In this document: in pieces, positions 9,945 to 46,952 of the stretch
How positions within the stretch are numbered: position 1 is the first letter of the stretch
How the letters are laid out: each line of letters begins with the position of its first letter
Source of the DNA: a virus
Direction: 5' to 3' (one strand)
IMG/VR virus record: IMGVR_UViG_3300033490_000001
Length of the DNA stretch: 64,000 nt
Translations under genes and position numbers: made by a program
Notes under the pieces: model-generated
What the model saw: the letters and a program-made list of their open reading frames with translations, nothing else
What the model was told of the DNA's origin: nothing
Databases searched by the model: none

Positions 9945-9972
9945 TTGACAGTTACGACTGTGCGGCTATAAT
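9945..9972 (+). promoter_or_regulatory. sigma70-type promoter
   Basis: TTGACA(9945-9950)-16 nt-TATAAT(9967-9972). Confidence 0.8.
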
Positions 9973-10037
9973 TTCTCGTAGGTAGCTTCTACGCGGTCCG
10001 GAAGTGCTTCTTTATGTGCGAATTGGAGGAAGTGCGA

Positions 10038-31559: not shown

Positions 31560-32292
31560 TTCTTGGCTTGGACTTGGACTTGGACTTTTTTTTGGGCTTT
31601 GGGCTTTTGGGCTTTGACTTGGGCTTTGGGCTTTTGGGCTTTGGGCTTGGGCTTGACCTTTTGGGCTTTGGGCTTGGGCTTGGACTGGCTCACTTGGGAC
31701 TTGGGACTTTGGACTTGGCTTTGGGCTTGACTTGACCTTTGGGCTTGACTTTGGACTTGGGCTTTGGGCTTTTGACTTGACCTTTTTGGCTTTTGGGTTT
31801 TGGCTTGGCTTGACTTGGGCTTTGAACTTGGCTTGGCTTTAAATCAAACTTGGCTTGGGCTTGACTTGGCTTTTTTGTGGCTTGGGCTTGACTGGCTGGC
31901 TTGGCTTTGCCAGCCAGATAGGCTTTGGCTTGACTTTGACTTTGGCTTTGGGCTTTGTGGCTTGACTTTGGGCTTAACTGGCTCACTTGGCTTGGGCTTT
32001 TGACTTGACTTTGGGCTTGGGCTTTTGTGGCTTGGGCTTTGACTTGACTTGGCTTTGGGCTTGGCTTTTTGGCTTTGACTTGGCTTTGTAAGCCAAGCGA
32101 CCTACAAAGCCCAAATTGTCAATTTGCTTTGGCTTTGACTTTGACTTTTTTTGGCTTTTGACTTGGCTTGGCTTTTGACTTTGGCTTGGCTTTAGAACTT
32201 GGCTTTGAAAAATGCTTTGGCATAAACTTTTGAAAAAAAAGCCCAAGCCCAAACTTTGGGCTTGGGCTTGGCTTTGGGCTTGGCTTTGGCTT
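31560..32292. repeat. Low-complexity array of TTGGGC/TTGGCT/TTGACT/TTGGAC-type units (telomere-like, G4-capable)
   Basis: About 730 bp; + strand nearly devoid of A and CpG; many GGG tracts spaced by 3-5 nt. Confidence 0.95.
32233..32267 (-). terminator. Terminator built from the repeat vocabulary
   Basis: GCCCAAGCCCAAA-C-TTTGGGCTTGGGC perfect inverted repeat adjacent to A8 on + (T8 on -). Confidence 0.7.
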
Positions 32293-32848
32293 AGTCAAGT
32301 TTAGCCGCTGGCGCATTCTCGGGCTTCCTTGTGTTCCATGCCTGTGCCAAAGCCACAACTTCCGCATCCAACTTTGCCTGCGGGCTTGACCGCACAATCC
32401 TTGTCAAGATTGTCCCTACATACCACGAAAGTTTGGCTTTCTCATAATCCTTGACTTGGACTCCATACCGAGAAGCCAAGTCAAGGACCTTCGCCCATTC
32501 TGACCTTGACTTGGCTTCCGCCTGGGCTTGGGCTTGGGCTTGGACTGGCTCTTGGACTTGTGGCAAGTCAACCTGCCCTTCCACCCTAATTTGCCCATAC
32601 CTGCCATGACTTGCGTCCAATTGCCAAGTCCAACCCACTAAATTGCCCTCCTCGTCCTCCTTGATGGCAACTTGGACTTGGACTTGACTAAAGCCATCCT
32701 GCCATCCACCCAAAGCCAAAATTTGCCTAACAAATTGTGCAACCTGCGACTGAAGTGTAGCCTTCAACTCCGACCGCCTGATGACTTCCTCAATTTGCGC
32801 CTCACTAAGCCCTAAACTTTGCAACTCACCCTTCAACACTTCCAACAT
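32291..32848 (-). CDS. Hypothetical protein, first gene of the leftward early unit
   Basis: AAAGGAGGT RBS; 185 aa; codon usage strongly skewed to CAA/GTC/GCC/AAG. Confidence 0.8.
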   Translation of the reverse strand: MLEVLKGELQSLGLSEAQIEEVIRRSELKATLQSQVAQFVRQILALGGWQDGFSQVQVQVAIKEDEEGNLVGWTWQLDASHGRYGQIRVEGQVDLPQVQEPVQAQAQAQAEAKSRSEWAKVLDLASRYGVQVKDYEKAKLSWYVGTILTRIVRSSPQAKLDAEVVALAQAWNTRKPENAPAAKLD

Positions 32849-32987: not shown

Positions 32988-33015
32988 TTTACTTTCGCTG
33001 AGAATCGGCTATAAT
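32988..33015 (+). promoter_or_regulatory. sigma70-type promoter of the GNAT-TGT operon
   Basis: TTTACT-16 nt-TATAAT, with CGGC immediately before the -10 box. Confidence 0.7.
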
Positions 33016-33079
33016 TTACTTTCGAGTAGCAAGCAAGCTTGTTCGGAAGCGTCGTTCCGAATTGGAGTGATATGAACCT

Positions 33080-34930: not shown

Positions 34931-35695
34931 TTGGCGATGGAGATCAAAGTAGATGAGCGGTTGAAGGGTTTACTTGAGCCGTTGCAAGGTGAAGAGCTTG
35001 ATGTGCTTGTAGAAGACATTTCCAAGCGTGGCATTCAGAACCCGATAATTGTTGACCAGAACGGTTACATCATTGATGGGCACACGCGCTATCAGATCGC
35101 TCAGATTCTCGGCATCGAGAACATTCCAATCAAGCAAATTGAAGTTTCCGATGAGGACGAACGGCTTGAGCGGGCATTAGCGTTGAACTTGCAACGCAGA
35201 AAGCAAGTTCCGACAAAGCGTTTGAAAGAACTTGCGCTTGAGCTTCATTCTCGTGGCTGGGATGTAGATAGGATCGCGCGGGCGTTATCGGTTCGGAAAG
35301 AGACAGTAAAGCACTGGATCAATCCAGTTCCGCCAAAAGACGAGCCTCCCGAAGTCAAAGGTTTGATGCAGTATTGGGCTATTGGGTTTTTGGTGAAGAT
35401 TCAGGGCTGGCTTGTTGGTGCTGAGAACTCGTTTGTGCTGATAGACAGGCGTTCTGACATGGTTGTAGTTTGGTTCACCCGTGGTGAGCGAAGTTTTGAA
35501 ATTGAAGTTCGGCAAGTTGGGCGTGACGAATATGTGGTTCAAGAGTGGCTTGTGGGATCTGAGGGCGTTCGTGAGATGAAGGTTGCTGAATTTACTGGCA
35601 CGATGAACAAGTCGATTGCTTTCATGCTCAGCAGGTTGAACCTTCCATTTGTTGACCTTGACGAAATTACGCAAGCAAGTTCGGTTGCAGGTTGA
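34931..35695 (+). CDS. ParB/Srx-like N-terminal domain protein with HTH
   Basis: LLEPLQGEELDVLVEDI...GIQNPIIVD...IIDGHTRY; WDVDRIARALSVRKETV. Confidence 0.85.
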   Translation: MAMEIKVDERLKGLLEPLQGEELDVLVEDISKRGIQNPIIVDQNGYIIDGHTRYQIAQILGIENIPIKQIEVSDEDERLERALALNLQRRKQVPTKRLKELALELHSRGWDVDRIARALSVRKETVKHWINPVPPKDEPPEVKGLMQYWAIGFLVKIQGWLVGAENSFVLIDRRSDMVVVWFTRGERSFEIEVRQVGRDEYVVQEWLVGSEGVREMKVAEFTGTMNKSIAFMLSRLNLPFVDLDEITQASSVAG

Positions 35696-37350
35696 AATTT
35701 TTGGCGGGCTGTGTTATAGATATAAGCGGACAACTTTGCTACATGGACAGGAGGTTGATACGCGTGGATGATTTCTTCAAAAATGGGATGCCGTGGCAGT
35801 ATCGCTATTGGGTTCCACATCTTCGGAAAGAGCTTACTGAGAACGCGATACTGAACATTTACTGGTTCTCCAGCAAAAGTTTCACCCACTTTTACCGCAA
35901 CGGGATGCGACTTGGTGTTGCTGAAGGGTCATTGACAGAGAATCTGAAAAAGCTTGAGGAAACTGAGTTTAAGTTCATACCGCTTGTAAGGCTAACTGAG
36001 GTAAGCGCTCTTGCTAAGTTGCGTAGGAAGGATGCTTACTTGGAATTGACGAGAGGCTTTGGTATTCCTGCGTTCCCAGTTGCCGTGAGCGACAAAGCTG
36101 TTTGGTGGTTCATCTTGCCGACGAAAGGGTTCAAACTGTTCTTGCAATCGCGGAAAGTTGAAACTCACAAAGTTCTGATGAGTTTCTGGATCGAGATCAG
36201 TGAATTTCCTGATGACTACCAGCGGAAGTTACTTGCTAGGTGTGCTGCTAATGGTGTGAGGTGGTGCAAGTTTGGTGGTCATATTTTCGTGCCGATCGGT
36301 GCTATTTTCAGCGAAGTTACCCAAGATGTCATTGATTTGCACCAGATTGGACCAGCTCGCTTCAGAGATGAGAGACGGTTTGTTGCTTTAAATCTGTTCA
36401 GGGCTGAAGTGGACACTGTTTGCGATGTCGTTGACGAGATAAACTTGTCGGTTGACACGATAGTTAAGAAAGGGTTCAATTTCCTGAGGCGCAAGGTTGC
36501 CGAGATGATGACTGCAGAAGTTAGCGATGAAGACATGATGCATCGTGATGAAGCGCTGATTGAAGTTGGCGAATTAAAAAAGCACGAATTTCTGCCGAAG
36601 CTGTTCAAGCTGAATTTCAGAACGCTCGAATGGCTCGACGATATTTCGATGTATTGCGAGCACATTTGTGGGCAAGTTTTTGGTGAAAACGAACGATATT
36701 TCACTGCGTATGTCAGGATGGTTGCCAACACAAAGTCGATGTTGCATCCGTATTCGCTGAAAGGACCGATAAAGGCAAGTCCATTCGAAGATGGAGATCC
36801 CGCCGTCCGGTTGTTGTTGCTTGCGCGGCAGCAGTTGTGCTTGAGAATTTACAGACGCCATGTCATACACGCTTATAGGGTGGATGTTTACCGACAGCGA
36901 ACGATGCCAGCTGACCTGTTAGCAAAGCATGTCGGTCATGCTATTAGGTGCATAGTTGACAAGTTCGAGCGGTTATGGAGCGACGAATCTGGCAGCAAGG
37001 TTGGAGTGGGAGTATTTTTCAAGGAATCGCAAATGAGCGTGAGAGTTCCGATGCCGAGAGAAGCTTTCGAAGCTATGATGGAACGGGTCAAAAGTTACAT
37101 TGAGACTAAGTGGAACAGAGATGCCACTGTGACGCTGGCGAGGACGGTTACGAAATCGTTTGTGAAGTGGTTTGTTGAGACATTCGGCGTTGCTGGGTTC
37201 AAGGTTCTGATAGGGAGCGCCTACGACGGCACGGTTCAACGCGTCATCGAAGCGTTTAACATCGTCAAGAGAAAGATTGACGACAGTTTGCGCCACTTCA
37301 TCGAACTTGCCGAAATGATGTTGATGCTTCCACAAACAGTCCCTCGCTAA
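35692..37350 (+). CDS. Large hypothetical protein
   Basis: 552-aa ORF overlapping the ParB-like gene by 4 nt; no motif recognised. Confidence 0.7.
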   Translation: MKFLAGCVIDISGQLCYMDRRLIRVDDFFKNGMPWQYRYWVPHLRKELTENAILNIYWFSSKSFTHFYRNGMRLGVAEGSLTENLKKLEETEFKFIPLVRLTEVSALAKLRRKDAYLELTRGFGIPAFPVAVSDKAVWWFILPTKGFKLFLQSRKVETHKVLMSFWIEISEFPDDYQRKLLARCAANGVRWCKFGGHIFVPIGAIFSEVTQDVIDLHQIGPARFRDERRFVALNLFRAEVDTVCDVVDEINLSVDTIVKKGFNFLRRKVAEMMTAEVSDEDMMHRDEALIEVGELKKHEFLPKLFKLNFRTLEWLDDISMYCEHICGQVFGENERYFTAYVRMVANTKSMLHPYSLKGPIKASPFEDGDPAVRLLLLARQQLCLRIYRRHVIHAYRVDVYRQRTMPADLLAKHVGHAIRCIVDKFERLWSDESGSKVGVGVFFKESQMSVRVPMPREAFEAMMERVKSYIETKWNRDATVTLARTVTKSFVKWFVETFGVAGFKVLIGSAYDGTVQRVIEAFNIVKRKIDDSLRHFIELAEMMLMLPQTVPR

Positions 37351-37463
37351 GCCGTTCCCGCTAAGTTGCACTCCATCACAGTAAGCCACCACTAAACCGC
37401 ACTAGACATTCGTCTACTCGCAACTAAACAACACTAACAGACGCGTGTCAACTTGATATTTCC

Positions 37464-37492
37464 TTGACATTGCTGGTCTGTATCACTATGCT
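37464..37492 (+). promoter_or_regulatory. sigma70-type promoter
   Basis: TTGACA-17 nt-TATGCT. Confidence 0.75.
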
Positions 37493-37498
37493 ACCGCA

Positions 37499-37730
37499 CC
37501 TCAGCAATTCGGAGTTGCAACTCCGAATGCTGAATGTTGGTAGCAACTTGCTTTATTCCTCTGTGTGTAGTCTTTGCTAGAGTGAATCGAAGCCAAACCT
37601 ACCTTGGAGAATAGAGTAACGAATTTATAACAGACTAACGTAACAACTACCCTCCTAACGGATTAAAAGACTCGATCTAGTAACGACTACACATAGCAGA
37701 CCTATAATAAAGCAACTTGCTACCAGCAAA
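37499..37730 (+). ncRNA. Candidate structured ncRNA (5' hairpin + long rod)
   Basis: Palindrome at 37501-37533; stems 37535-37557/37706-37728 (22/23 paired) and 37561-37580/37677-37696 (19/20 paired), with three G-U wobbles on the + strand. Confidence 0.6.
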
Positions 37731-37899
37731 TTTTCGCGAGTGACCTGACTATGATGCGAAACCGAGTTTATTTGGCAAGTGCTTGTGGCAATTTCGCGGA
37801 TGTGGTGGCGTGTATGGAGAGATGGTAGGCATGGTCGGTTCAGCTTGTGGTGTAGGTGAGAAGTTTCGGCTGTTTGTGCGTGGTGTCTATTGTTGCTGA

Positions 37900-37928
37900 T
37901 TGACAACCTTGCGTTTTTGTCTTATACT
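37900..37928 (+). promoter_or_regulatory. sigma70-type promoter
   Basis: TTGACA-17 nt-TATACT; implies the next gene starts at ATG 37962. Confidence 0.8.
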
Positions 37929-37961
37929 TTGTGCTGGTCGGTAGTCTGTTTACGCGAAATC

Positions 37962-38912
37962 ATGGGAATTGTAAGGAGGGTGTTTAGGTTGCGGAAGCGT
38001 GAGATTCGCGTGATTGAAGATCAAATCTATGTCGAGCGTAGTCCTTTTGGCGTTCGGTTCAACATGAAGGTTTACTGTTCTCCTGCCTTTTATGCTGAGA
38101 ACAAGCAACTTCCGCTCCTTGCGTTTCCCGAAGGTTCGCTTCCACCGTTACTGAGGTTGTTTCCGTTGTCTCCAGTTAGGCTGAAAAGTGGAATTGAAGC
38201 GTACCTATTTGTTCGGCACGAAGATTTCTTCAAGGTTGTTCGTTCGACGAAATACAGGCGTGCTGACAGTTCCCTTCTGTCGACCATCTTAAATCTCAGG
38301 AAGCTGATGGTCATGAGCATTGACACTGACAAGCACAACCGAGCCCGTTGCCTTGTCTTTCCGTTCATGACTGACAAAGATTTCTGGGAAGCTTTCGGGC
38401 TTGAGTCTATCCCACCGATCGGTCAAGTTTTTGTTTACGTTTCGCATTACCCTCGTGAAAGGCAACTTAACTTTGTCGCTGCGACTTTACTGAACCATTT
38501 CGCGTTACTTTACTATCTCCTGAAGCATGATGAGAAGGAGTGGTTTATCGATGAGATAGCCAAGACAAAGAACTTGATCGAGTTTGCTCCATTCGTAGTT
38601 GAGAGCAAAGTCAGCCAGAACCATGTCTTCGTGCCTGAACCTATGTTCGCGCTCGCGTTAGTTACTGAATTTCCTGACCAAATACGCGAAATTGCCGCGA
38701 AATATCTTGCCAGCACCAAGGGTTTCGGACCGTCAGCTTGGTTTGCGTACTCTGGCATGGCTTACCGCAAACTTCTCAAATCGGCGTTTGCCATCACTGA
38801 CGAACAGGTTTTCGAAAGGTTCAAGAAGTTAGTTGCTGAACGGTTCTCGGGTGCTGAGTATGAAGTTGACCTTTCCAAAACCAACTACGGAGGTGTTTTG
38901 GCGGCATCGTAG
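37962..38912 (+). CDS. Hypothetical protein
   Basis: Long ORF downstream of a consensus promoter. Confidence 0.7.
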   Translation: MGIVRRVFRLRKREIRVIEDQIYVERSPFGVRFNMKVYCSPAFYAENKQLPLLAFPEGSLPPLLRLFPLSPVRLKSGIEAYLFVRHEDFFKVVRSTKYRRADSSLLSTILNLRKLMVMSIDTDKHNRARCLVFPFMTDKDFWEAFGLESIPPIGQVFVYVSHYPRERQLNFVAATLLNHFALLYYLLKHDEKEWFIDEIAKTKNLIEFAPFVVESKVSQNHVFVPEPMFALALVTEFPDQIREIAAKYLASTKGFGPSAWFAYSGMAYRKLLKSAFAITDEQVFERFKKLVAERFSGAEYEVDLSKTNYGGVLAAS

Positions 38913-38929
38913 GTGCTGCCAATCAAATC

Positions 38930-39463
38930 ATGAGGCGAAAATCGGTGACGGACGAGCGTTTTGAATCTGAAGAAGACATTCCGACGAAAAGCATATGGCG
39001 GCGAACGAAACTTTTCTGGCGTTCGTTGCCTGCTTGGCTTAGAGTTCAGTATGTTCGAGCGCTAAGGGAAGCTGCTTCACAAGTGGTTCGTAAGCTCCTT
39101 GAACATTTCAGTGATGCTAACATGCGGGATGTCGTGCAGATGTATTTGCTTGGAGCGTTCCTTGAAAAGTTCAGGCAATTACGAGAGTTCAACTTGAAGT
39201 CTGCGAAGATCAAGATTTCGCACCCTCTATTTACCTTGCACTCTAACGGTTTCTGGCTCGATGAGTTATACTTTCCCGAAGAGACCGTATGGCTCAGTAT
39301 GACCGTACCTAGGCGCATCTGGTGGTGGCTTGTTATGGACCCTGTAAAGCGAGCGAAGTTCTTTGAGTTCGTGAACGAGCTGTTCAAAGAAGACATTCCG
39401 GTTATCGAGATTTCAGACGGAGATGATGGCGATGCCGGTGTTGCCGATGGAAAGTCTTCCTGA
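38930..39463 (+). CDS. Hypothetical protein
   Basis: 177-aa ORF with RBS. Confidence 0.6.
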   Translation: MRRKSVTDERFESEEDIPTKSIWRRTKLFWRSLPAWLRVQYVRALREAASQVVRKLLEHFSDANMRDVVQMYLLGAFLEKFRQLREFNLKSAKIKISHPLFTLHSNGFWLDELYFPEETVWLSMTVPRRIWWWLVMDPVKRAKFFEFVNELFKEDIPVIEISDGDDGDAGVADGKSS

Positions 39464-39836
39464 CCCGATAACTGAGCTTGGCAGAGAACTGACGCGTGAA
39501 ATCAGGGCATTCATGAAAACTTTGAAACGGTTCGAAGAGCTTAGAGACAGACTCGCTGAAATGCTTGACGATGCGATAGCGAGCGGAAAGGTTCAGGTTA
39601 AGACGGCGAAAGACATTCAAACGCTCGTTGACGCGTATTCCAAGCTTGCAGAGACTGAGGGCAAACTTGCGACGGCTATGGCGCAGTTGATGAAGGTTGC
39701 AAACGAACGGGACGCATTAACGGTAGCGGTATTTTCTCGAACCGATAGCGGAAAAGTCATTCAAGCAGAATTCAACCCAAAGGCGCTTATTCCTGTAATT
39801 GGCGTTTCGGAAGCAAACGATGAAGACTCGGAGTGA
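39423..39836 (+). CDS. Helical protein, possible terminase small subunit
   Basis: Coiled-coil ~130 aa at the head of the morphogenesis cluster; positional inference only. Confidence 0.35.
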   Translation: MMAMPVLPMESLPDPITELGRELTREIRAFMKTLKRFEELRDRLAEMLDDAIASGKVQVKTAKDIQTLVDAYSKLAETEGKLATAMAQLMKVANERDALTVAVFSRTDSGKVIQAEFNPKALIPVIGVSEANDEDSE

Positions 39837-39842
39837 ACGGTC

Positions 39843-40172
39843 ATGGAGCGCTTAAAGATCATTCGTGGAAACGATGAGACATTCAGGGTAGTAGTTACAG
39901 CTGGCGGTATTCCGTTGAACTTGACTGGCGTTACTTTAAAGTGCGAAGTCAAAGAAGCGCCTGGTGGAAGGAAATTGTTTGATGCGATCATTCAAGAAGA
40001 TGATTTGGTCAATGGCGCGTTTATGGTTCAATTTCCAAGTTACGAGACGCAAAAACTTATTCCGAACAGCGTGATTTACTTTGACATCATGATTACATTT
40101 CCGGATGGCACGGTCAGAAACGTCCCATCTCCTCCATTATCTGCGATTGTCGTTGAGCGTGTTACGGACTAA
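39843..40172 (+). CDS. BppU-N-like virion structural domain
   Basis: LKIIRGNDETFRVVV...PLNLTGVTL...YFDIMITFPDG. Confidence 0.65.
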   Translation: MERLKIIRGNDETFRVVVTAGGIPLNLTGVTLKCEVKEAPGGRKLFDAIIQEDDLVNGAFMVQFPSYETQKLIPNSVIYFDIMITFPDGTVRNVPSPPLSAIVVERVTD

Positions 40173-40238
40173 TTGCTGTAGTAGTGTCGAACAAATTTGC
40201 AGAAGCTGCGCAACCAGCAAGTTAGATGGTGAAATTCG

Positions 40239-40766
40239 ATGAGCGAAGTCAGAACTGAGCACATCGTAAATGATGACGAGCACAAAGAACAGTTGATTCC
40301 TGTTTTGACCGAGTTGCAACTGCAAGGTGGTGGCGTCTTTTACCTGATTATCGAGCGACACCGAGATGGTCAGAAAGAGCGTGAAATCATCGAAATCAAG
40401 AACCTCATCACTGACCTCGGGTTAGACATCTTCATTCGAAACCTCATCAACTCCAGCCCAGTTACTATCAGTCACATAGTTCTTTCCGACGCCACGACTG
40501 CTCCAAGTCCTGGCGAAACGACTATGCCCGGAACGAACAAGTGGGCTCAAGCAGCGACAGTTTCGAGACCTTCGGCACGGCAAGCACGCTGGCAGGCGTC
40601 TTGGGCGCAAGGAGCGATCGTTGGAACTATCGGTTCAATTGGGCTTTGTTCCGACAGCGCAGGAAACAACTTGTTTGCGCGTGTTCGACTGTCAACGCCA
40701 AAGACTGTTGGTGCAGACGATACTGTTTCGGTTGTCTATGATTTGACCTTGAGCCGACAATCGTGA
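40239..40766 (+). CDS. Tail-collar/fibre attachment-like structural protein
   Basis: KNLITDLGL...ISHIVLSD...GTIGSIGL...LFARVRL...KTVGADDTVSVVYDLT. Confidence 0.65.
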   Translation: MSEVRTEHIVNDDEHKEQLIPVLTELQLQGGGVFYLIIERHRDGQKEREIIEIKNLITDLGLDIFIRNLINSSPVTISHIVLSDATTAPSPGETTMPGTNKWAQAATVSRPSARQARWQASWAQGAIVGTIGSIGLCSDSAGNNLFARVRLSTPKTVGADDTVSVVYDLTLSRQS

Positions 40767-40821
40767 TAGTTACAGGAGCATCGGAATTTCCATCCGTCGA
40801 TTTATCGGGAGGTGAATAATT

Positions 40822-41205
40822 GTGACCGATGAACAGGTGCAATTGCTGCTTGAACTGTTTGCGCAAGTTTACAACGCTGATGAACCAACTACTGTCGATG
40901 ATGCTGGTCTTGACAGTTGGTGGGAAACTGTTGCGACAAAACTTGAAGCCATTGTTGCGATCTGCAAGAAGCAGGAAATTAAGGATCGAATGCAAGGGCA
41001 CATCAATTATGCCCGCAGGATTATCAAGGACACAGTTTCGTGGATGAGAGAGGTCGATAATGCGCTTTCTCGTAACCCTAAGAAAGCTGAACTCATGCGG
41101 ATTATTCGCAGAGGACTCGATGAGGGTCGCAAAGGAATGTTAGCTCGCATGAAGGAAGACATTAAACAAGCGTTAGCGCAAGAGTTAAGTGGAGGTGGTG
41201 GATAA
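40822..41205 (+). CDS. Hypothetical protein
   Basis: GGAGGTGA RBS. Confidence 0.6.
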   Translation: MTDEQVQLLLELFAQVYNADEPTTVDDAGLDSWWETVATKLEAIVAICKKQEIKDRMQGHINYARRIIKDTVSWMREVDNALSRNPKKAELMRIIRRGLDEGRKGMLARMKEDIKQALAQELSGGGG

Positions 41206-42074
41206 TGGGCTTTCGATACACTTTCATTGGTCGTCCAGCGACTGCTCTAGACTTGATGAATGTCATAAGGGATAACCTTGTGCAGGCTGGTTGGACTTTG
41301 CTGCGAGAATTTACCGATGGCAGCGGAAATAACATCAAATATCTCAAAACTGCACCTTACATCATGCCAGACAATTCCGATGCTGGTTCTGCAGTGCTTG
41401 AGCTTCGCAACCCTGCTGGAACTAACCATGTTGACATCAAAATGTGGAACGGTTGGGATTCACAGTCTAATTCTCCAGTCGGACCTGATTGTCCAAACTC
41501 TGCCAACGGCTCTTACCTTAGATTAGCATACTCATATCAAGCTGGGCTTTATTATTGGCTTTACGCTAACGAATTTTGGTTTGCTTTGCTTCAAACAGAC
41601 TCAACTGGAGGACCACCATATGGTGACAGTTACTACAAGACTGTTGCTGGCGTTGCCTTACCTCCAAGTGGCGTTCCAACTGCGCCTCCATACAAAGCGC
41701 TTTTCGTTGCTTCGCCATACAACACTTCAGGGTCTTTAATAGATTACAACGAAGGAACCCGAAATCTCATTCGTGACCAATATCGGTCAGCCTATGTGGC
41801 AGTAAACCCAATTGATGGAACTAACTTCTGGGCGAATTGGATGCCATTTACTGATGAACGAAGAACGCCAACCAGATACACGGGTCATCCAGACCAACCA
41901 CTTTATCTCTTCCCGCTGCTGCTTTTGACTGTCGGTGAAATCAAATACGCGAAAGTCACAGGTAACATGACAATGGGACTTGGCACACAACAAGTGATCA
42001 ATGGCGAGACTTGGGTGAACATCATCGCTGGCGCATACAACGGTCATGGTCAAATTTGGGTTCGGATAGCGTAA
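41205..42074 (+). CDS. Putative virion fibre/receptor-binding-associated protein, copy A
   Basis: G/S/Y/W-rich beta protein; tandem paralog of 42092-42970. Confidence 0.6.
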   Translation: MGFRYTFIGRPATALDLMNVIRDNLVQAGWTLLREFTDGSGNNIKYLKTAPYIMPDNSDAGSAVLELRNPAGTNHVDIKMWNGWDSQSNSPVGPDCPNSANGSYLRLAYSYQAGLYYWLYANEFWFALLQTDSTGGPPYGDSYYKTVAGVALPPSGVPTAPPYKALFVASPYNTSGSLIDYNEGTRNLIRDQYRSAYVAVNPIDGTNFWANWMPFTDERRTPTRYTGHPDQPLYLFPLLLLTVGEIKYAKVTGNMTMGLGTQQVINGETWVNIIAGAYNGHGQIWVRIA

Positions 42075-42091
42075 CATGAACGGGAGGTGAA

Positions 42092-42970
42092 ATGACGAAA
42101 ATGGGTTTCATTTACGAGTTCATCGGCAGACCTGCAACTGCCTTAGAACTAATGAATGTCATCAGAGACAAATTGGTGGCTGCAGGATGGACGCTGTTGC
42201 GTGAGTATCAAGATGCCAGTGGTAACAATTACAAGTTTCTGATGTGCGCTCCATACATCATGCCTGATGGAAGTGATGCTGGGTCAGCAGTTGTGGAGTT
42301 TAGAAACCCTGCAGGAACTAACCATGTAGATGTGAAAATGTGGACTGGCTGGGACAGCCAAACTAATACTCCAATTCCACCAGACTGCCCAAACGCTGCG
42401 AACGGTTCATATCTAAGGCTTGCGTATTCTTACCAAACAGGTCTTTACTATTGGCTTTACGCAAATGAATATTGGTTCGCTTTACTTGAAGCAAGTGGCG
42501 GCGCGGCTGCAGGTGCTCCAGTAGTGTCGTCTATGTTTAAAACAATCGTTGGACTTGCTTTACCGTTAGCTGGCATTCCTACAGCTCCACCTTTCAAAGC
42601 TCTGTTTGTCTGCTCGCCTTACAACACTTCTGGAGGTTTAATAGATAGTGGACAGGGAACACGGCTTCTCCTTGATCAAAACTGGCGATCAGCATTTATC
42701 TCCATTAATCCTTTATCAGGAACTCCTTGGTGGAGTAATTTTCGCGTGGATTGGTCGTGGATTCCGTCCGTTTATGTCGGTCATCCTGATCTTCCTCCAG
42801 TGTTGATTCCTTGGTTTCTTCACGGGTCAGGAGAATTTAAATATGCGCTTTACACGCGAAATGGTCGAACTGGAATGGGTTCGAGAATTAGGATTGGCAA
42901 CGAAGTTTGGGTCCCGATTATAGGCGGCGACTATGACTGGTATGGTCAAATTTGGGCGCGCATTGCGTAA
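42092..42970 (+). CDS. Putative virion fibre/receptor-binding-associated protein, copy B
   Basis: Shares long identical blocks with copy A (FIGRPATAL, APYIMPD, NPAGTNHVD, NGSYLRLAYSYQ, SPYNTSG, GQIWxRIA). Confidence 0.6.
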   Translation: MTKMGFIYEFIGRPATALELMNVIRDKLVAAGWTLLREYQDASGNNYKFLMCAPYIMPDGSDAGSAVVEFRNPAGTNHVDVKMWTGWDSQTNTPIPPDCPNAANGSYLRLAYSYQTGLYYWLYANEYWFALLEASGGAAAGAPVVSSMFKTIVGLALPLAGIPTAPPFKALFVCSPYNTSGGLIDSGQGTRLLLDQNWRSAFISINPLSGTPWWSNFRVDWSWIPSVYVGHPDLPPVLIPWFLHGSGEFKYALYTRNGRTGMGSRIRIGNEVWVPIIGGDYDWYGQIWARIA

Positions 42971-42990
42971 GACAAAGGGAGTGATGGGTA

Positions 42991-45336
42991 TTGCCGTTAG
43001 CGCCTATCATTTTCGATTATGTTATATCAAAGAAAATGGACAGGCTTGGTGGGTTTACCGGTGTCGGAGATTTCTCGTTAATGAAACCGATGAAGATTGG
43101 AGGTATGTTAGTTTATCCGAAAGCTGAACTTGCGCGACCCATCTTGCCTACAAACCAATCTGTTCGCTGCGAATTCCAAACTGGCTTTGTGCGTTATCGA
43201 TTCGATCAATCTTTGGGAGCCACTTTAGAATTCGTCCCAAACGCTTCGGGACAGATGTTTTTCGACTTTCGCGTCGGTATCAAGTCCTCATTTTTCACCA
43301 TCAGAGGCAATATTGTCCAGATAGCTTCAGGTGACTCTCTTGTAGTTTCGTTCTATCCAAGAGGGCTGCCAAATCAGGCAGCTTACTCTCAAACTATATC
43401 GTCTACTGGCAATTTCGCTGTAACTTGGTCTCCGGTAGCTGATGGAAATCGTGAGTGGATGTTACGCATAACGGCAATCTTCAATCAATCATCTATTCCA
43501 ATTGTCATCAATGGTCTAAGCATTGAGCGCGATAGATTAGATTACCCTCAACGGGAAGGGATGGTGTGGCAAGGAGTCTGGCTTGGAAGAGTTGAAGATG
43601 CCGGTGTCCTGCCACTTGGGCGAATTTGGTCGGACTGTGAAGGCGGATATGCTGCCAATCGGTTCTATGTCAGCCCGCCAGCCTACGATACCTTAGATTT
43701 CGTTCCGAGAAGATCGGGTCGTGTATTCTGTGATTTCCAGTGCGGTCTCACCAATTTAGCCATTGTCGTTAGAGGAAACATCACTCGAATGGCAGCTGGC
43801 GATAGCATAACAGTGCAGTTTTATCCAAGAGGCTTACCCGATCAGATTGCGTTCTCACAAAACATAAGTTCTACCGGAGAATTTCAAGTTATCTGGACGC
43901 CACCTCGTAGAGGAGAATGGATTGTGAGAGTAGCGGCGAACCTCAATCAAACTGAGTTGCCAATAACAATTACAAATTTCAGAGTTGAACGAGCGACAGG
44001 AGTAGGGACTGGTGGCGGAGGCGGTGTAAGTATCCAAGTAAGCGATCAGATGAGCATCATGTCATCAGAAACAATCTTGGCTCAGTTGTCTTTAAATCAA
44101 GTCGAACATGGAATGATTTCAGGAGCTGAACAAGTTAATCCGAATGTGCTTATGACCGTTGGTGATACAGAAACTCTGCAATCTATTGATTCTGCGATTG
44201 CACAGTTCAGCTTGCTTCCGTCAGAGTTAGCGCAAATCATTGCAAGCGAGGCAGTTCAGCCATCGTTGCAAGCTTCTGTCTCCGAAGTCATGCAGGCTTC
44301 AGTGCAAGATACAGTCCTCTCACAATTACTTGCGTCTCCATCAGAGACCGTCAGAGTTTCGACTTCTGAGTCTGTCATCTCGAGCATTTCTGTAGCAGCT
44401 ACAGACGCGACGCAGGTTCGAACTGATGAATCACAAGTCGTGCAGGTTAGCGTTGGCATTTCGGAAAGTTTGCGAATTTCAACGGCTGAGCAAGCAACTC
44501 CGGTTATCTCGTTTGCATTAGCTGAAAGCCAACAAGTTCTCGCAAGCGAAGGCGTCAATGTCTTTACAGGATTCCAACTACTCGTCAGCGATTCAATGCA
44601 AGTGGCTACATCCGAATCGCAGAGCACGAACATCGCTGCTCAGATCGTCCAACAAGAAGCGATTCAGACTGCCGAAGCACCGACTACTCAGCTTGGCGTT
44701 TCTGTCGCAGACTCAGCAAGCATTTTATCCGCTGAGTCTATTATCCCTACGCTGCAACCGCGTGTTTCAGAAACCGTCCAAGTCCTTGCGTCAGAATCTC
44801 AGTCTGTCGGCATCGCAATCAACTTCACGCAACAAGAAAATGTGAGAGCCTCAGAAACTCCGGTAACTCAGATCGGAATTGTTGTCTCAGACCAAGCGAT
44901 AGCGTCAGCAAGCGAAGTAATTGCGCCAACGATTGTCCCACAAGTATCAGAAACGACGCGCATCAGCGCGTCTGAGCAAACACCTGTCGCAATGCAAATT
45001 GCAGCAGCGACTACAGCGCAAATTAGGGCAACAGAGTCGGTGTTACCGTCAATTCAAGTTGCTGCATCAGATGTTGGCGAAATTGTAGTCTCTGAGGAAA
45101 GTTCTGCTCAGATCGCCAGCTCAATTAGTGAAACGATCCGAATTATAACCACAGAGCAGCCCACCACTCAAGTTCAGTTCAGTGCAGTTGAGTCTGTCAC
45201 GCAGATTGAAGCAGAAATTGCGCCGTTCGTCGGTCTTATCCAGCGACTGATGATCCCAGTGTCAGTTGATCTTCTCAAAGCCGTTGAATTGTCGATTTCC
45301 ATCACGCAAGTGAGTTTAGATCTCGGAATAGATTGA
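42991..45336 (+). CDS. Fibre-like protein: two duplicated beta-sandwich domains, Gly linker and ~20 copies of a 20-aa repeat
   Basis: FYPRGLPxQ...SSTGxFxVxW duplicated; GTGGGGG linker; 20-residue periodicity with acidic residues at positions 7 and 15. Confidence 0.7.
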   Translation: MPLAPIIFDYVISKKMDRLGGFTGVGDFSLMKPMKIGGMLVYPKAELARPILPTNQSVRCEFQTGFVRYRFDQSLGATLEFVPNASGQMFFDFRVGIKSSFFTIRGNIVQIASGDSLVVSFYPRGLPNQAAYSQTISSTGNFAVTWSPVADGNREWMLRITAIFNQSSIPIVINGLSIERDRLDYPQREGMVWQGVWLGRVEDAGVLPLGRIWSDCEGGYAANRFYVSPPAYDTLDFVPRRSGRVFCDFQCGLTNLAIVVRGNITRMAAGDSITVQFYPRGLPDQIAFSQNISSTGEFQVIWTPPRRGEWIVRVAANLNQTELPITITNFRVERATGVGTGGGGGVSIQVSDQMSIMSSETILAQLSLNQVEHGMISGAEQVNPNVLMTVGDTETLQSIDSAIAQFSLLPSELAQIIASEAVQPSLQASVSEVMQASVQDTVLSQLLASPSETVRVSTSESVISSISVAATDATQVRTDESQVVQVSVGISESLRISTAEQATPVISFALAESQQVLASEGVNVFTGFQLLVSDSMQVATSESQSTNIAAQIVQQEAIQTAEAPTTQLGVSVADSASILSAESIIPTLQPRVSETVQVLASESQSVGIAINFTQQENVRASETPVTQIGIVVSDQAIASASEVIAPTIVPQVSETTRISASEQTPVAMQIAAATTAQIRATESVLPSIQVAASDVGEIVVSEESSAQIASSISETIRIITTEQPTTQVQFSAVESVTQIEAEIAPFVGLIQRLMIPVSVDLLKAVELSISITQVSLDLGID

Positions 45337-46952
45337 TGCGAAGGAGTGAGACATGGATGTCATGGCAGCCAGATTTGGAATTTCTGGAATTCCTGAAGAG
45401 CTTCAAACTGCCAAAAGGTAGACCGTTTGTTTTCAAGCCACACCTTCTCGCTCTCTACGCTTACCCACTTCGGCAACGCAAATTTCTTGCGATTCAGAAG
45501 GCATCGCAGCTTGGAATTTCGACATACGCAATTGCGCGAGCGATTTTCGAGTGCATTCATCGCAAGCTCGATGTCATGTATGTTCTGTCATCGTGGCCTG
45601 TTGTCAAGAAGTTCGTTCTGAGCAAAATTGATCCGATATTGTCTGCGATGGGCATTCAGCCCAATCCAGATAGCATAGACACAAAGGGTGTAATCAATGG
45701 GATTATTCACTTCACTGGCGGTCAAAAGGTCACGCAAGCAATCTCAATCACTGCTGACTTTCTAATTCTCGACGAATTTTCGTTTTTAGACCCGACAACG
45801 CGGGATACGTTCGAAGACAGGCTATTGGCATCTGATGAAGGCATGATCCTACAGCTTTCTATTCCGTCAGGAACTGAGAGTGGCATCGAAGCTGTTGTGG
45901 CTGCAACCAAATTGTTTATCTGGCACGTTCAGTGTCGGTCATGCAAGCGAATAGTTCCACTTGATCCGAGGGAATATGAGCGGCTTATTACTCTCGATGA
46001 CAGCGGGAAACAGTGGATTTTCAGGTGCTTAGTTTGCGGCAATCCTCTCGATCCCAATGACCCAAATGCTGTACAGGTTAGGACATCAGGCTTTTACGCT
46101 GCCATGAACCCTGAAGCTGAACGAGATGGTTTTCTGATCTCGACTGTCTATGATCCGGAACGAACCGCTGAATGGTTCAAGCAAATTGAGCAAAAACGCG
46201 ATGCAAGTAGGTTCTATCCGGGTGTCATCGGAATTCCGTATGTTATCTCGATGCGAATCGCATTTTCTGATCTACTTAACCTTGTGCTGCCAGATTCTGA
46301 ATGGAATGAACCCAAATTTGTGCCTATCGTTGCTGGAGTCGACTACGGTAAACTATTCCACATCGCTTACCTAACGCTGACCGATCCGCCTCAAGTGGTT
46401 CGACTATCCGTCGCTGCCGACTGGCAACAAGCTCTCGATGAACTTTCGATCTTTAGACCTGTTTTGACGCTCATAGACGAGCTTCCACCAGGCGACAATT
46501 ACTTGTTACGGGACGAACTTTCGGCAAGAGGTGCTGATGCAAGGCTTGCTCTCGCTAGAGCGCCACACAACATATCTGGCGACTTTCACGTAGACAGAAG
46601 GCGAGTAGTTTACAACAATGTCCAAGCTTTCAACATGCTATTTGGCGCAATCCAAAGCGGTCAGGTTCGGTTCCTTCGAAGCAGGCGGCTTGAAGAATTA
46701 TTTGTGCACATCCTTCGCGCACGGAGAGCAATTGCGTCATTGAAAGGGCGATACTACCACACTTGGGTTATCGGCGAAACTGCTCACTTTCTTGATGCCC
46801 TTAAGATGGCTTGGATAGCGAAACTCATAGCATCTACGAGCCCGAACGCTAACCAGCCGGTAATCAGAGACAGCGATGGAGAGCATTTCGATCGCACAAT
46901 GACTGAAGATGAGTTCATAGAACGAGTGTTGCAATCGCTTGGAATCGGATAG
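45333..46952 (+). CDS. Terminase large subunit (GpA-like)
   Basis: IQKASQLGISTY (Walker A-like), LILDEF, WHVQCRSC...CLVC Zn ribbon, VAGVDYG, HFLDALKMA nuclease motifs. Confidence 0.85.
   Translation: MMRRSETWMSWQPDLEFLEFLKSFKLPKGRPFVFKPHLLALYAYPLRQRKFLAIQKASQLGISTYAIARAIFECIHRKLDVMYVLSSWPVVKKFVLSKIDPILSAMGIQPNPDSIDTKGVINGIIHFTGGQKVTQAISITADFLILDEFSFLDPTTRDTFEDRLLASDEGMILQLSIPSGTESGIEAVVAATKLFIWHVQCRSCKRIVPLDPREYERLITLDDSGKQWIFRCLVCGNPLDPNDPNAVQVRTSGFYAAMNPEAERDGFLISTVYDPERTAEWFKQIEQKRDASRFYPGVIGIPYVISMRIAFSDLLNLVLPDSEWNEPKFVPIVAGVDYGKLFHIAYLTLTDPPQVVRLSVAADWQQALDELSIFRPVLTLIDELPPGDNYLLRDELSARGADARLALARAPHNISGDFHVDRRRVVYNNVQAFNMLFGAIQSGQVRFLRSRRLEELFVHILRARRAIASLKGRYYHTWVIGETAHFLDALKMAWIAKLIASTSPNANQPVIRDSDGEHFDRTMTEDEFIERVLQSLGIG

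Follow-up and report, generated by a model that had tools for sequence, protein, structure and literature searches.

A conserved single-copy long hairpin at the entrance to the late operon of hot-spring phages, a candidate cis-acting RNA module

RNase III processing hairpins lie between phage operons, at the early and late mRNA sites of T7 and in the N leader and sib of lambda, and lambda nut (boxB) and HK022 put are antitermination sites. Phage cos and pac regions, among them lambda cosB with its R sites and IHF bend and the pac regions of P1 and SPP1, are packaging sites. The late promoter PR′ of lambda and Stx phages yields a short terminated leader RNA (the lambda '6S' transcript, StxS) (PMC7547250). 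Here we describe a 195-nt hairpin, hereafter the rod, in a 64,000-nucleotide (64-kb) stretch of phage DNA (IMG/VR record IMGVR_UViG_3300033490_000001), which we call the window and whose numbering is used throughout. The rod lies in the gap between an open reading frame (ORF) for a 552-aa orphan protein and the first late gene, where the late operon begins; TerL is 7.6 kb downstream. The structure is real, single-copy, under purifying selection and undescribed: a search of positions 36800-38400 against Rfam 15 gave no match at E up to 10, and the loci of five relatives gave none at E up to 1. Our preferred interpretation, which we hold tentatively, is that the rod acts in cis as an RNA hairpin module on plus-strand transcripts, as a barrier, processing site or leader at the boundary between the middle and late operons.

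The first-pass annotation had described the region as a candidate promoter-driven, rod-like small RNA within a larger imperfect palindrome. Folding of positions 37495-37740 with RNAfold, a check it had proposed, gave -89.2 kcal/mol on the plus strand (z -9.9) and -95.3 kcal/mol on the minus strand (z -8.4), and on neither strand did any shuffled sequence fold as well. Both long stems that it had named (23 and 20 bp) were recovered, the 20-bp core lying inside a 28-nt inner stem, and the promoter (P1) and the 22-bp perfect palindrome are likewise present (Table 1). Apart from a repeat array at 31.8-32.3 kb, the rod is the only nested long inverted repeat in the 64 kb, and both a covariance model and a motif search identified it as single-copy in the window. 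The gap, given earlier as 540 bp, actually spans ~638 bp from the end of the 552-aa ORF (37350) to a TTG start at 37989; this start follows a ribosome-binding site (RBS), AGGAGG, at ~37974-37980 and is consistent with gene calls of 300-314 aa in the relatives.

Several alternative uses of the gap were discarded. A 26-codon plus-strand frame from the ATG at 37533 lacks an RBS, and its ATG is absent in the relatives; an 83-aa minus-strand ORF (37655-37906) lies mainly inside a poorly conserved spacer; and ARAGORN found no tRNA or tmRNA. The plus strand is G+T-rich in the region of the element, and a giant hairpin formed by the whole gap (CA-rich left against GT-rich right) reaches z-scores of only -2.8 on the plus and -3.5 on the minus strand and is mostly compositional. 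The outer-arm pairing of GCCACCAC with GTGGTGGC noted earlier does exist, but its right arm lies in a spacer that is ~50% conserved, and the pairing reflects the C/A-rich left and G/T-rich right flanks.

To follow the element beyond the window, we used metagenomic contigs with the same gap, recovered via the flanking proteins. Clade A comprises eight distinct sequences (the window, L008, which is identical to L009, L010, L003, L004, L012, L001 and L045), clade B is represented by L002 (identical to L040), and clade C by L041 (identical to L042), L043, L044 and the truncated L007. The element occupies the same slot, between the 552-aa orphan gene and the late operon, in 12 sequences from the three clades and has one orientation in all 12; the covariance model of the rod finds exactly one copy per relative contig and no further copy in the window. 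The 552-aa proteins encoded next to it share only 40-44% identity when clade A is compared with clades B and C. A blastn search of phage GenBank with the region gave no match, so that no cultured phage corresponds to it, the nearest TerL among phage records is ~25% identical, and protein-guided scans of IMG/VR found no relatives. Matches to the box-pair pattern in viral (6) and prokaryote (18) genome collections were all rejected by the covariance model as chance (24 of 24).

Two more distant lineages, L037 and L038, share only the N-terminal part of the orphan protein and have a gap of 600-750 nt at the same place. The L038 gap contains an unrelated long hairpin with 31-nt arms (z -4.9 on the plus and -4.3 on the minus strand), followed by three small genes and then TerL. 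The arm sequence of the rod changes together with the 552-aa family: where just the N-terminal part of that protein is shared, the hairpin is another one or is missing. L038 (69-5438, compared with window 35692-46952) is a mosaic relative, with a TerL that is 79% identical, a homologue of the 177-aa protein that is 36% identical and an unrelated first late gene; it lacks the six window genes between the 137-aa gene and TerL, including the BppU-like, tail-fibre-like and 781-aa fibre-like genes.

Within clade A, mean pairwise identity is 0.85-0.98 over P1, both hairpins and two downstream blocks, which is the level of the flanking coding sequence, whereas the spacers (37350-37369, 37750-37769 and 37790-37889) are only 0.40-0.57 identical. 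The two blocks that follow the rod reach 0.92-0.94, compared to 0.57 for the stretch between them; they could pair with each other as a 6-8 bp helix (with G.U on the plus strand) or represent two copies of a DNA site. The apical region is 84-95% identical over most of its length in clade A, dropping to 68% in the indel-bearing segment 37650-37669, and the apical sequence of clades B and C is entirely unrelated to it. Its CAACTAA heptad varies from one to four copies among close relatives (L045 1000-1211, L001 7737-7936, L004 1905-2103, window 37640-37660), a slippage-type change. The smaller 5′ hairpin that precedes the rod stands at a similar distance after a TGTCAA box in all clades, with an unrelated sequence in clades B and C.

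Across the 12 sequences the rod has 31 consensus pairs, and 98.1% of the cells of the alignment are paired, versus 25-46% after sliding the partners against each other. Covariation scores 0.114, compared to 0.079 in shuffles, and none of 500 shuffles reaches 0.114. Four consensus pairs change on both sides, a number reached by 29 of 500 shuffles; these changes include UA to CG at two adjacent pairs of the outer stem and, in clade B, CTAG to CCGG on both arms of the inner stem. Since pairs are kept by two-sided changes between clades, complementarity has been maintained over long evolutionary distances. Covariation among homologues, another of the checks proposed for this locus, is therefore present to this extent, but 19 of the 31 pairs are invariant and no strand is preferred.

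The promoter in front of the rod is equally well conserved in one clade. All eight distinct clade A sequences carry P1 with TTGACA, a spacer of exactly 17 and a -10 element with A2 and T6 (TATGCT, TATAAT, TATGAT, AATATT or GATATT); the spacer sequence diverges strongly between clade A subgroups while the hexamers and their spacing stay, and the element begins 7-8 nt behind P1. The second and stronger promoter, P2, has counterparts that read TTGACT-16-TAAGAT in clade B and TTGACA-18-TAAGAT in clade C. With a threshold of 10 or more matches to the 12 sigma70 consensus positions, the window has only six sites, and five of them, P1 and P2 included, lie directly upstream of plus-strand genes; as judged by these sites, the phage clearly uses sigma70-like promoters. 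Near-consensus promoters of this type occur on the plus strand only and stand just upstream of genes, at 9945, 32990, 34872, 37464, 37900 and 54595; another leader motif seems to serve the early genes on the minus strand. The hexamer GGTAGC occurs in the promoter leaders at 9981, 37539 and 54663 and in both rod arms. It is twofold enriched window-wide (24 occurrences versus 11.7 expected, with 0 of 100 shuffles reaching 24), and GGTAGC and GTAGCRA were accordingly dropped as a leader motif, the enrichment of GGTAGC being genome-wide and not leader-specific.

Table 1. Coordinates of the element and of the surrounding features in the window
Feature	Position	Strand	Description
Replication block	4-33 kb	-	SNF2, DnaB, primase
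Upstream operon	33.1-37.35 kb	+	GNAT, TGT-like enzyme, ParB-like protein, 552-aa orphan; DNA-modification operon
TTCGGA-N8-TCCGAA palindrome, second copy	33042-33061	+	In the leader of the upstream operon promoter TTTACT-17-TATAAT (~32990-33015), just before the RBS
552-aa orphan ORF	35692-37350	+	Start overlaps the end of the ParB-like gene by four bases
C/A-rich, G-poor untranslated tract	37351-37445	+	Directly after the stop of the 552-aa gene; C 36%, G 15%; rut-like composition
TGTCAA box	37446-37451	-	Minus-strand TTGACA, the -35 of a promoter-like site facing left; makes an inverted pair with its P1 counterpart
Promoter P1, TTGACA-17-TATGCT	37464-37492	+	Predicted start near 37498-37500
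5′ hairpin with perfect 22-bp palindrome (37507-37528)	37500-37534	+	Core TTCGGA-N8-TCCGAA; extends to a ~16 bp hairpin
Long hairpin (rod), 195 nt	37535-37730	+	Outer stem, inner stem and apical region
Rod outer stem	37535-37557 / 37706-37728	+	23 nt, 91%; one G.U, one C.C
Rod inner stem	37561-37588 / 37669-37696	+	28 nt, 79%; arms 80 nt apart; contains the invariant box TGTGTAGTC/GACTACACA
Apical region	37589-37668	+	No conserved pairing; UAAC-rich; CAACTAA heptad, 1-4 copies
Two conserved blocks 3′ of the rod	~37731-37749 and 37770-37800	+	Each with a TTCGCGA/TTCGCGG quasi-palindrome; variable stretch between
G/T-rich, poorly conserved spacer	37801-37895	+	G 42%, C 9%; ~50% pairwise identity
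Promoter P2, TTGACA-17-TATACT	37900-37928	+	11/12; directly upstream of the first late gene
Late (packaging/structural) operon	After the gap, past 64 kb	+	Tail-fibre-like genes, TerL 45333, capsid protein 55906, tape measure 61993

The habitat of these phages changes how the rod should be pictured. One source sample, Ga0105155, was taken at 86.6 °C from the Sandy's West hot spring (PMC7689252), and an 86.6 °C spring is the origin of clades B and C (PMC7689252). The predicted energy of the rod is -64 to -69 kcal/mol at 37 °C versus -3 to -14 kcal/mol at 80-87 °C, where the same stems are still predicted. By this calculation the rod would be only marginally stable at 80-87 °C, amounting to an ordinary strong hairpin and not to a special rod, and its length would be what a functional hairpin needs in a genome of 47% G+C at the temperature of its habitat.

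We sought a strand preference from single-sequence minimum free energy (MFE), mismatch types, the structure conservation index (SCI) and wobble counts, and found none. The SCI is 0.77 on the plus and 0.80 The first-pass annotation had taken three transition differences between the arms, all G-U on the plus strand, as a sign of selection on an RNA. This count is correct for the core stems, but there is also a conserved C.C mismatch and, just outside the cores, two A.C mismatches; when the arms are compared with each other, G.T and A.C mismatches are both present in every sequence. Among the relatives, the column pairs predicted on both strands include 8 with G.U, 6 with A.C and 8 with other mismatches, and with SCI and MFE balanced as well, the wobbles no longer indicate selection on RNA. 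Because all these measures are balanced, covariation as read from the present alignments cannot assign the strand or decide between RNA and DNA. It is the context that favours a plus-strand RNA. The rod arms are 80-110 bp apart across lineages, so the hairpin would need single-stranded nucleic acid to form; the operons on either side are both encoded on the plus strand, so plus-strand transcription across the element is expected; and in clade A P1 lies just upstream.

Upstream of the promoter, at the position following the 552-aa stop codon, the tract of Table 1 has a C/G ratio of 1.9-3.1 in all lineages examined. Such a C-rich, G-poor tract has the composition of a Rho loading site and may serve as one. 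The TGTCAA box that follows it is invariant in clades A, B and C and in L037 and L038 (window 37446-37451; L002 3474-3501; L041 2425-2453). The leftward promoter-like site to which it belongs (TTGACA-16/17-TATAGT) scores 11/12 in L002, L001 and L004, and in the window its -10 is only TTTAGT. In L041 and L037 we observed minus-strand terminator-like hairpins within ~40 nt of the TGTCAA box, so that this promoter-like site could give a very short RNA antisense to the C-rich tract.

Taken together, action in cis as an RNA is favoured because the fold exceeds chance on both strands and its nested long inverted repeat is otherwise unique outside the array at 31.8-32.3 kb; because the same slot is filled in three clades, with an unrelated hairpin in that slot in L038; and because the element keeps an identity of 0.85-0.98 against neutral spacers and shows two-sided pair changes between clades. 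The requirement for a single strand combined with plus-strand flanking operons points the same way, as does the retention of the P1 hexamers and spacing while the spacer drifts, in a phage that does use such promoters, and the 5′ hairpin that follows the TGTCAA box at a similar distance in all clades. Further support comes from the predicted stability of -3 to -14 kcal/mol at 80-87 °C together with a C-rich tract in every lineage, and from the precedent of the short terminated PR′ transcript (PMC7547250).

In this mechanism, host RNA polymerase in clade A would start at P1 near 37499 and transcribe the 5′ hairpin and then the rod. In clades B and C, transcripts reading through from the upstream DNA-modification operon would pass the C-rich tract and then yield the two hairpins. 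We infer that the rod would then act as a pause or termination site, or as a site of RNase III-type cleavage and stabilisation. Such a barrier would keep transcription from the upstream operon and from P1 separate from that of the late genes, whose own promoter, P2, lies 170 nt downstream, and P1 transcripts that end or are cut at the rod would leave a stable by-product RNA of ~235 nt, as with PR′ in lambda and Stx phages (PMC7547250).

A number of observations weigh against this interpretation. Recent substitutions in the stems look random with respect to pairing, as the mismatch counts above show, and no measure prefers the transcribed strand. Nineteen of the consensus pairs never vary, the 9-bp box TGTGTAGTC/GACTACACA is invariant across clades in which the neighbouring proteins share only 40-42% identity, and the C.C mismatch is conserved as well; an invariant box, unvarying pairs and a conserved C.C are more typical of DNA repeats recognised by a protein. 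Clades B and C have the hairpins without P1 or any other plus-strand promoter in front. Finally, a scan for intrinsic terminators finds none at the hairpin, and the only U tract is the UUUU found 2-7 nt after the stem in clade A, with none in clades B and C.

The comparison with described RNA elements is correspondingly mixed. As with PR′, a housekeeping-type promoter before the late genes is followed immediately by a structured RNA of ~200 nt that is possibly a by-product; unlike PR′, there is no recognised Q-like gene or qut site and no clear intrinsic terminator, P2 stands before the late genes, and P1 is absent in two clades. The rod resembles the RNase III sites of phages in being a long imperfect intergenic hairpin on the transcribed strand between gene blocks, with a duplex of more than 20 bp and internal mismatches. 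Its 23-nt and 28-nt stems are of the length that RNase III needs (~20 bp or more), which is necessary and not sufficient, so that cleavage is only predicted. It differs from the T7 and lambda sites in its much greater length, its conserved apical region of 80-110 nt and its invariant 9-bp box.

The small palindrome inside the 5′ hairpin invites comparison with nut and put. TTCGGA-N8-TCCGAA has exactly two copies in the 64 kb (33042-33061 and 37508-37527) versus 0.01 expected, and both stand shortly downstream of plus-strand sigma70-like promoters, with shared stems (half-sites) and different loops. The two copies suggest that P1 and the upstream operon have an operator or leader hairpin in common. 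Like nut and put, the same small palindrome thus follows two plus-strand promoters, and the C-rich tracts suggest Rho-type termination to be overcome; unlike boxB, where the reverse holds, the two copies have common stems and distinct loops, there is no known N-like protein, and the palindrome of clade B overlaps a -10. The L001 copy of the upstream palindrome reads TTTGGA...TCCGAA, and the related clade B sequence, ATTCGG-N14-CCGAAT, straddles the -10 of the upstream operon promoter. The differing loops and this overlap suit an RNA hairpin no better than a DNA operator. The pairing of the palindrome is broken in L008 and L003, and the centre of the 22-bp palindrome varies among close relatives. 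A protelomerase (tel) site was considered for the 22-bp palindrome and rejected, given the unconserved centre and a 552-aa protein without a detectable family.

Recognition of the element as DNA is nearly as likely as action in cis as an RNA, and we regard it as a serious if doubtful possibility. The arms would be inverted protein-binding boxes around an AT-rich spacer, used for packaging (cos/pac-type), for replication initiation or by a regulator, and the ParB-like, 552-aa and conserved 177-aa proteins are, by position, possible binders. The earlier suggestion of a cruciform origin or packaging element survives in this form, except that a repeat array at 31.5-32.3 kb makes a better origin candidate. 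The persistence of the invariant box and of conserved arm sequences across clades with diverged neighbouring proteins fits such a site, as do arm mismatches balanced among G.U, A.C and other types, and arms whose sequence co-varies with the 552-aa family. The direct repeat AGCAACTTGCT, present in both arms, creates the C.C mismatch conserved in clade A. The element is unique in the genome and, like a cos or pac region, is a site of 150-250 bp with repeated boxes flanking an AT-rich centre (at 37600-37649 the apical region has 32% GC, which places it in the 0.2% of 50-bp windows that are poorest in GC), located where the terminase operon begins, with a nuclease-fold accessory gene, here the ParB-like one, before it; in L038 only three small genes precede TerL. 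The palindrome recurs at another promoter, its half-sites unchanged around a different spacer, which is operator-like, and the clade B version, lying on the -10, could not be an RNA hairpin.

Against a DNA site, the 55-bp arms are far beyond known operator or terminase sites and, unlike those of cos and pac regions, mutually complementary, with TerL 7.6 kb away in the window. The spacer varies from 80 to 110 bp via heptad slippage, a poor fit to a fixed geometry of looping or cleavage, close relatives differ at the centre of the 22-bp palindrome, and the 552-aa candidate binder has no family or solved relative in our searches. The large contigs continue across the site without a break, an observation that carries no information in the case of cellular metagenomes.

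A stand-alone, trans-acting small RNA (sRNA) is a weaker candidate and, we think, unlikely. In clade A, P1 could drive an RNA of ~235 nt whose unpaired apical region binds an RNA-binding protein of host or phage or a target RNA, the long stem serving for thermostability or processing. The ~230-nt promoter-driven sRNA first proposed is plausible to this extent, behind a conserved P1 whose predicted start falls at the foot of the 5′ hairpin, as in many stable sRNAs, but the two sister clades have the hairpin without a plus-strand promoter and with unrelated apical sequences. The apical 80 nt are conserved in clade A about as well as coding sequence, without conserved pairing, and the repeated short motif with its changing copy number resembles protein-sponge RNAs. 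However, the sRNA would have no clear terminator, and the apical region has no complementary target of at least 11 nt in the window, where only chance 10-mers were found. The best apical match is to the P2 leader, over 12 nt and with one mismatch; it decays in the relatives, to 8/12 positions in L004 by hand comparison. On inspection of the alignments, neither this match nor an anti-Shine-Dalgarno-like CCCTCC appears to be conserved in the relatives, and both were set aside as antisense contacts.

More speculative, and in our judgement improbable, is a new class of thermostable regulatory RNA in hyperthermophile phages. It might be a put-like modifier of the polymerase for the late operon of more than 26 kb, or a stable RNA with an apical CAACUAA/UAAC array that sequesters an RNA-binding protein; both versions would have Rho loading on the C-rich tract controlled by an antisense transcript from the conserved TGTCAA-box promoter.

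We consider it very unlikely that the rod is a selfish or structural DNA repeat, such as an invertible segment or an insertion resembling a miniature inverted-repeat transposable element (MITE), without a role in phage gene expression. The element does have terminal inverted repeats around a variable core, but a MITE or transposon would have dispersed copies and this element has one copy per genome, in a fixed position in three clades and one orientation in 12 of 12 sequences, under purifying selection relative to its flanks and with no transposase or invertase gene among the annotated neighbours. The 6S-like decoy proposed earlier, which would mimic an open promoter and sequester host RNA polymerase, is the least probable reading of all: the rod shares with 6S RNA (RF00013 and related) a length of ~200 nt, a largely double-stranded, rod-like look and a housekeeping-type promoter, but no Rfam family, 6S models included, matched in the Rfam searches described above (with E allowed up to 10 for the window and up to 1 for the relatives), the consensus is a two-tier stem closed at one end with an unpaired apical region of 80-110 nt and no conserved central bubble between two helices, and only the core stems are predicted to survive 80-87 °C, a low stability that takes most of the force from any comparison of size and shape.

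The window as a whole is a phage genome in three blocks, a minus-strand replication block, a plus-strand operon and the plus-strand late operon. The four-base overlap of the 552-aa and ParB-like genes suggests translational coupling. Searches of Pfam, PHROGs, PDB profiles and the ESM Atlas returned no relative of the 552-aa protein, and only ~7 homologues were found among 1.8 billion representative proteins; its N-terminal 160 residues recur in proteins of 445-580 aa in related phages, and its AlphaFold model is unusable, with a predicted local distance difference test (pLDDT) score of 35. The repeat array (31560-32300) is C-rich and G-poor on the transcribed minus strand and lies at the cumulative GC-skew minimum, beside the replication genes; besides being the better origin candidate, it is possibly another Rho-type checkpoint.

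To our knowledge, almost nothing is known about the timing of gene expression in phages of 80-90 °C springs. The element described here is the best-conserved non-coding feature in the window, has no Rfam match and is placed where control of the late genes would act. It also carries a caution: a 55-bp 'rod' at 37 °C is predicted to be marginal at the temperature of the habitat, and likeness in size and shape to RNAs of mesophiles such as 6S misleads. If it acts as a packaging or replication site, it would mark the cis-acting centre of the genome and point to its orphan neighbours as binders; if it acts as RNA, it would offer a handle on transcription control in uncultured thermophile phages.

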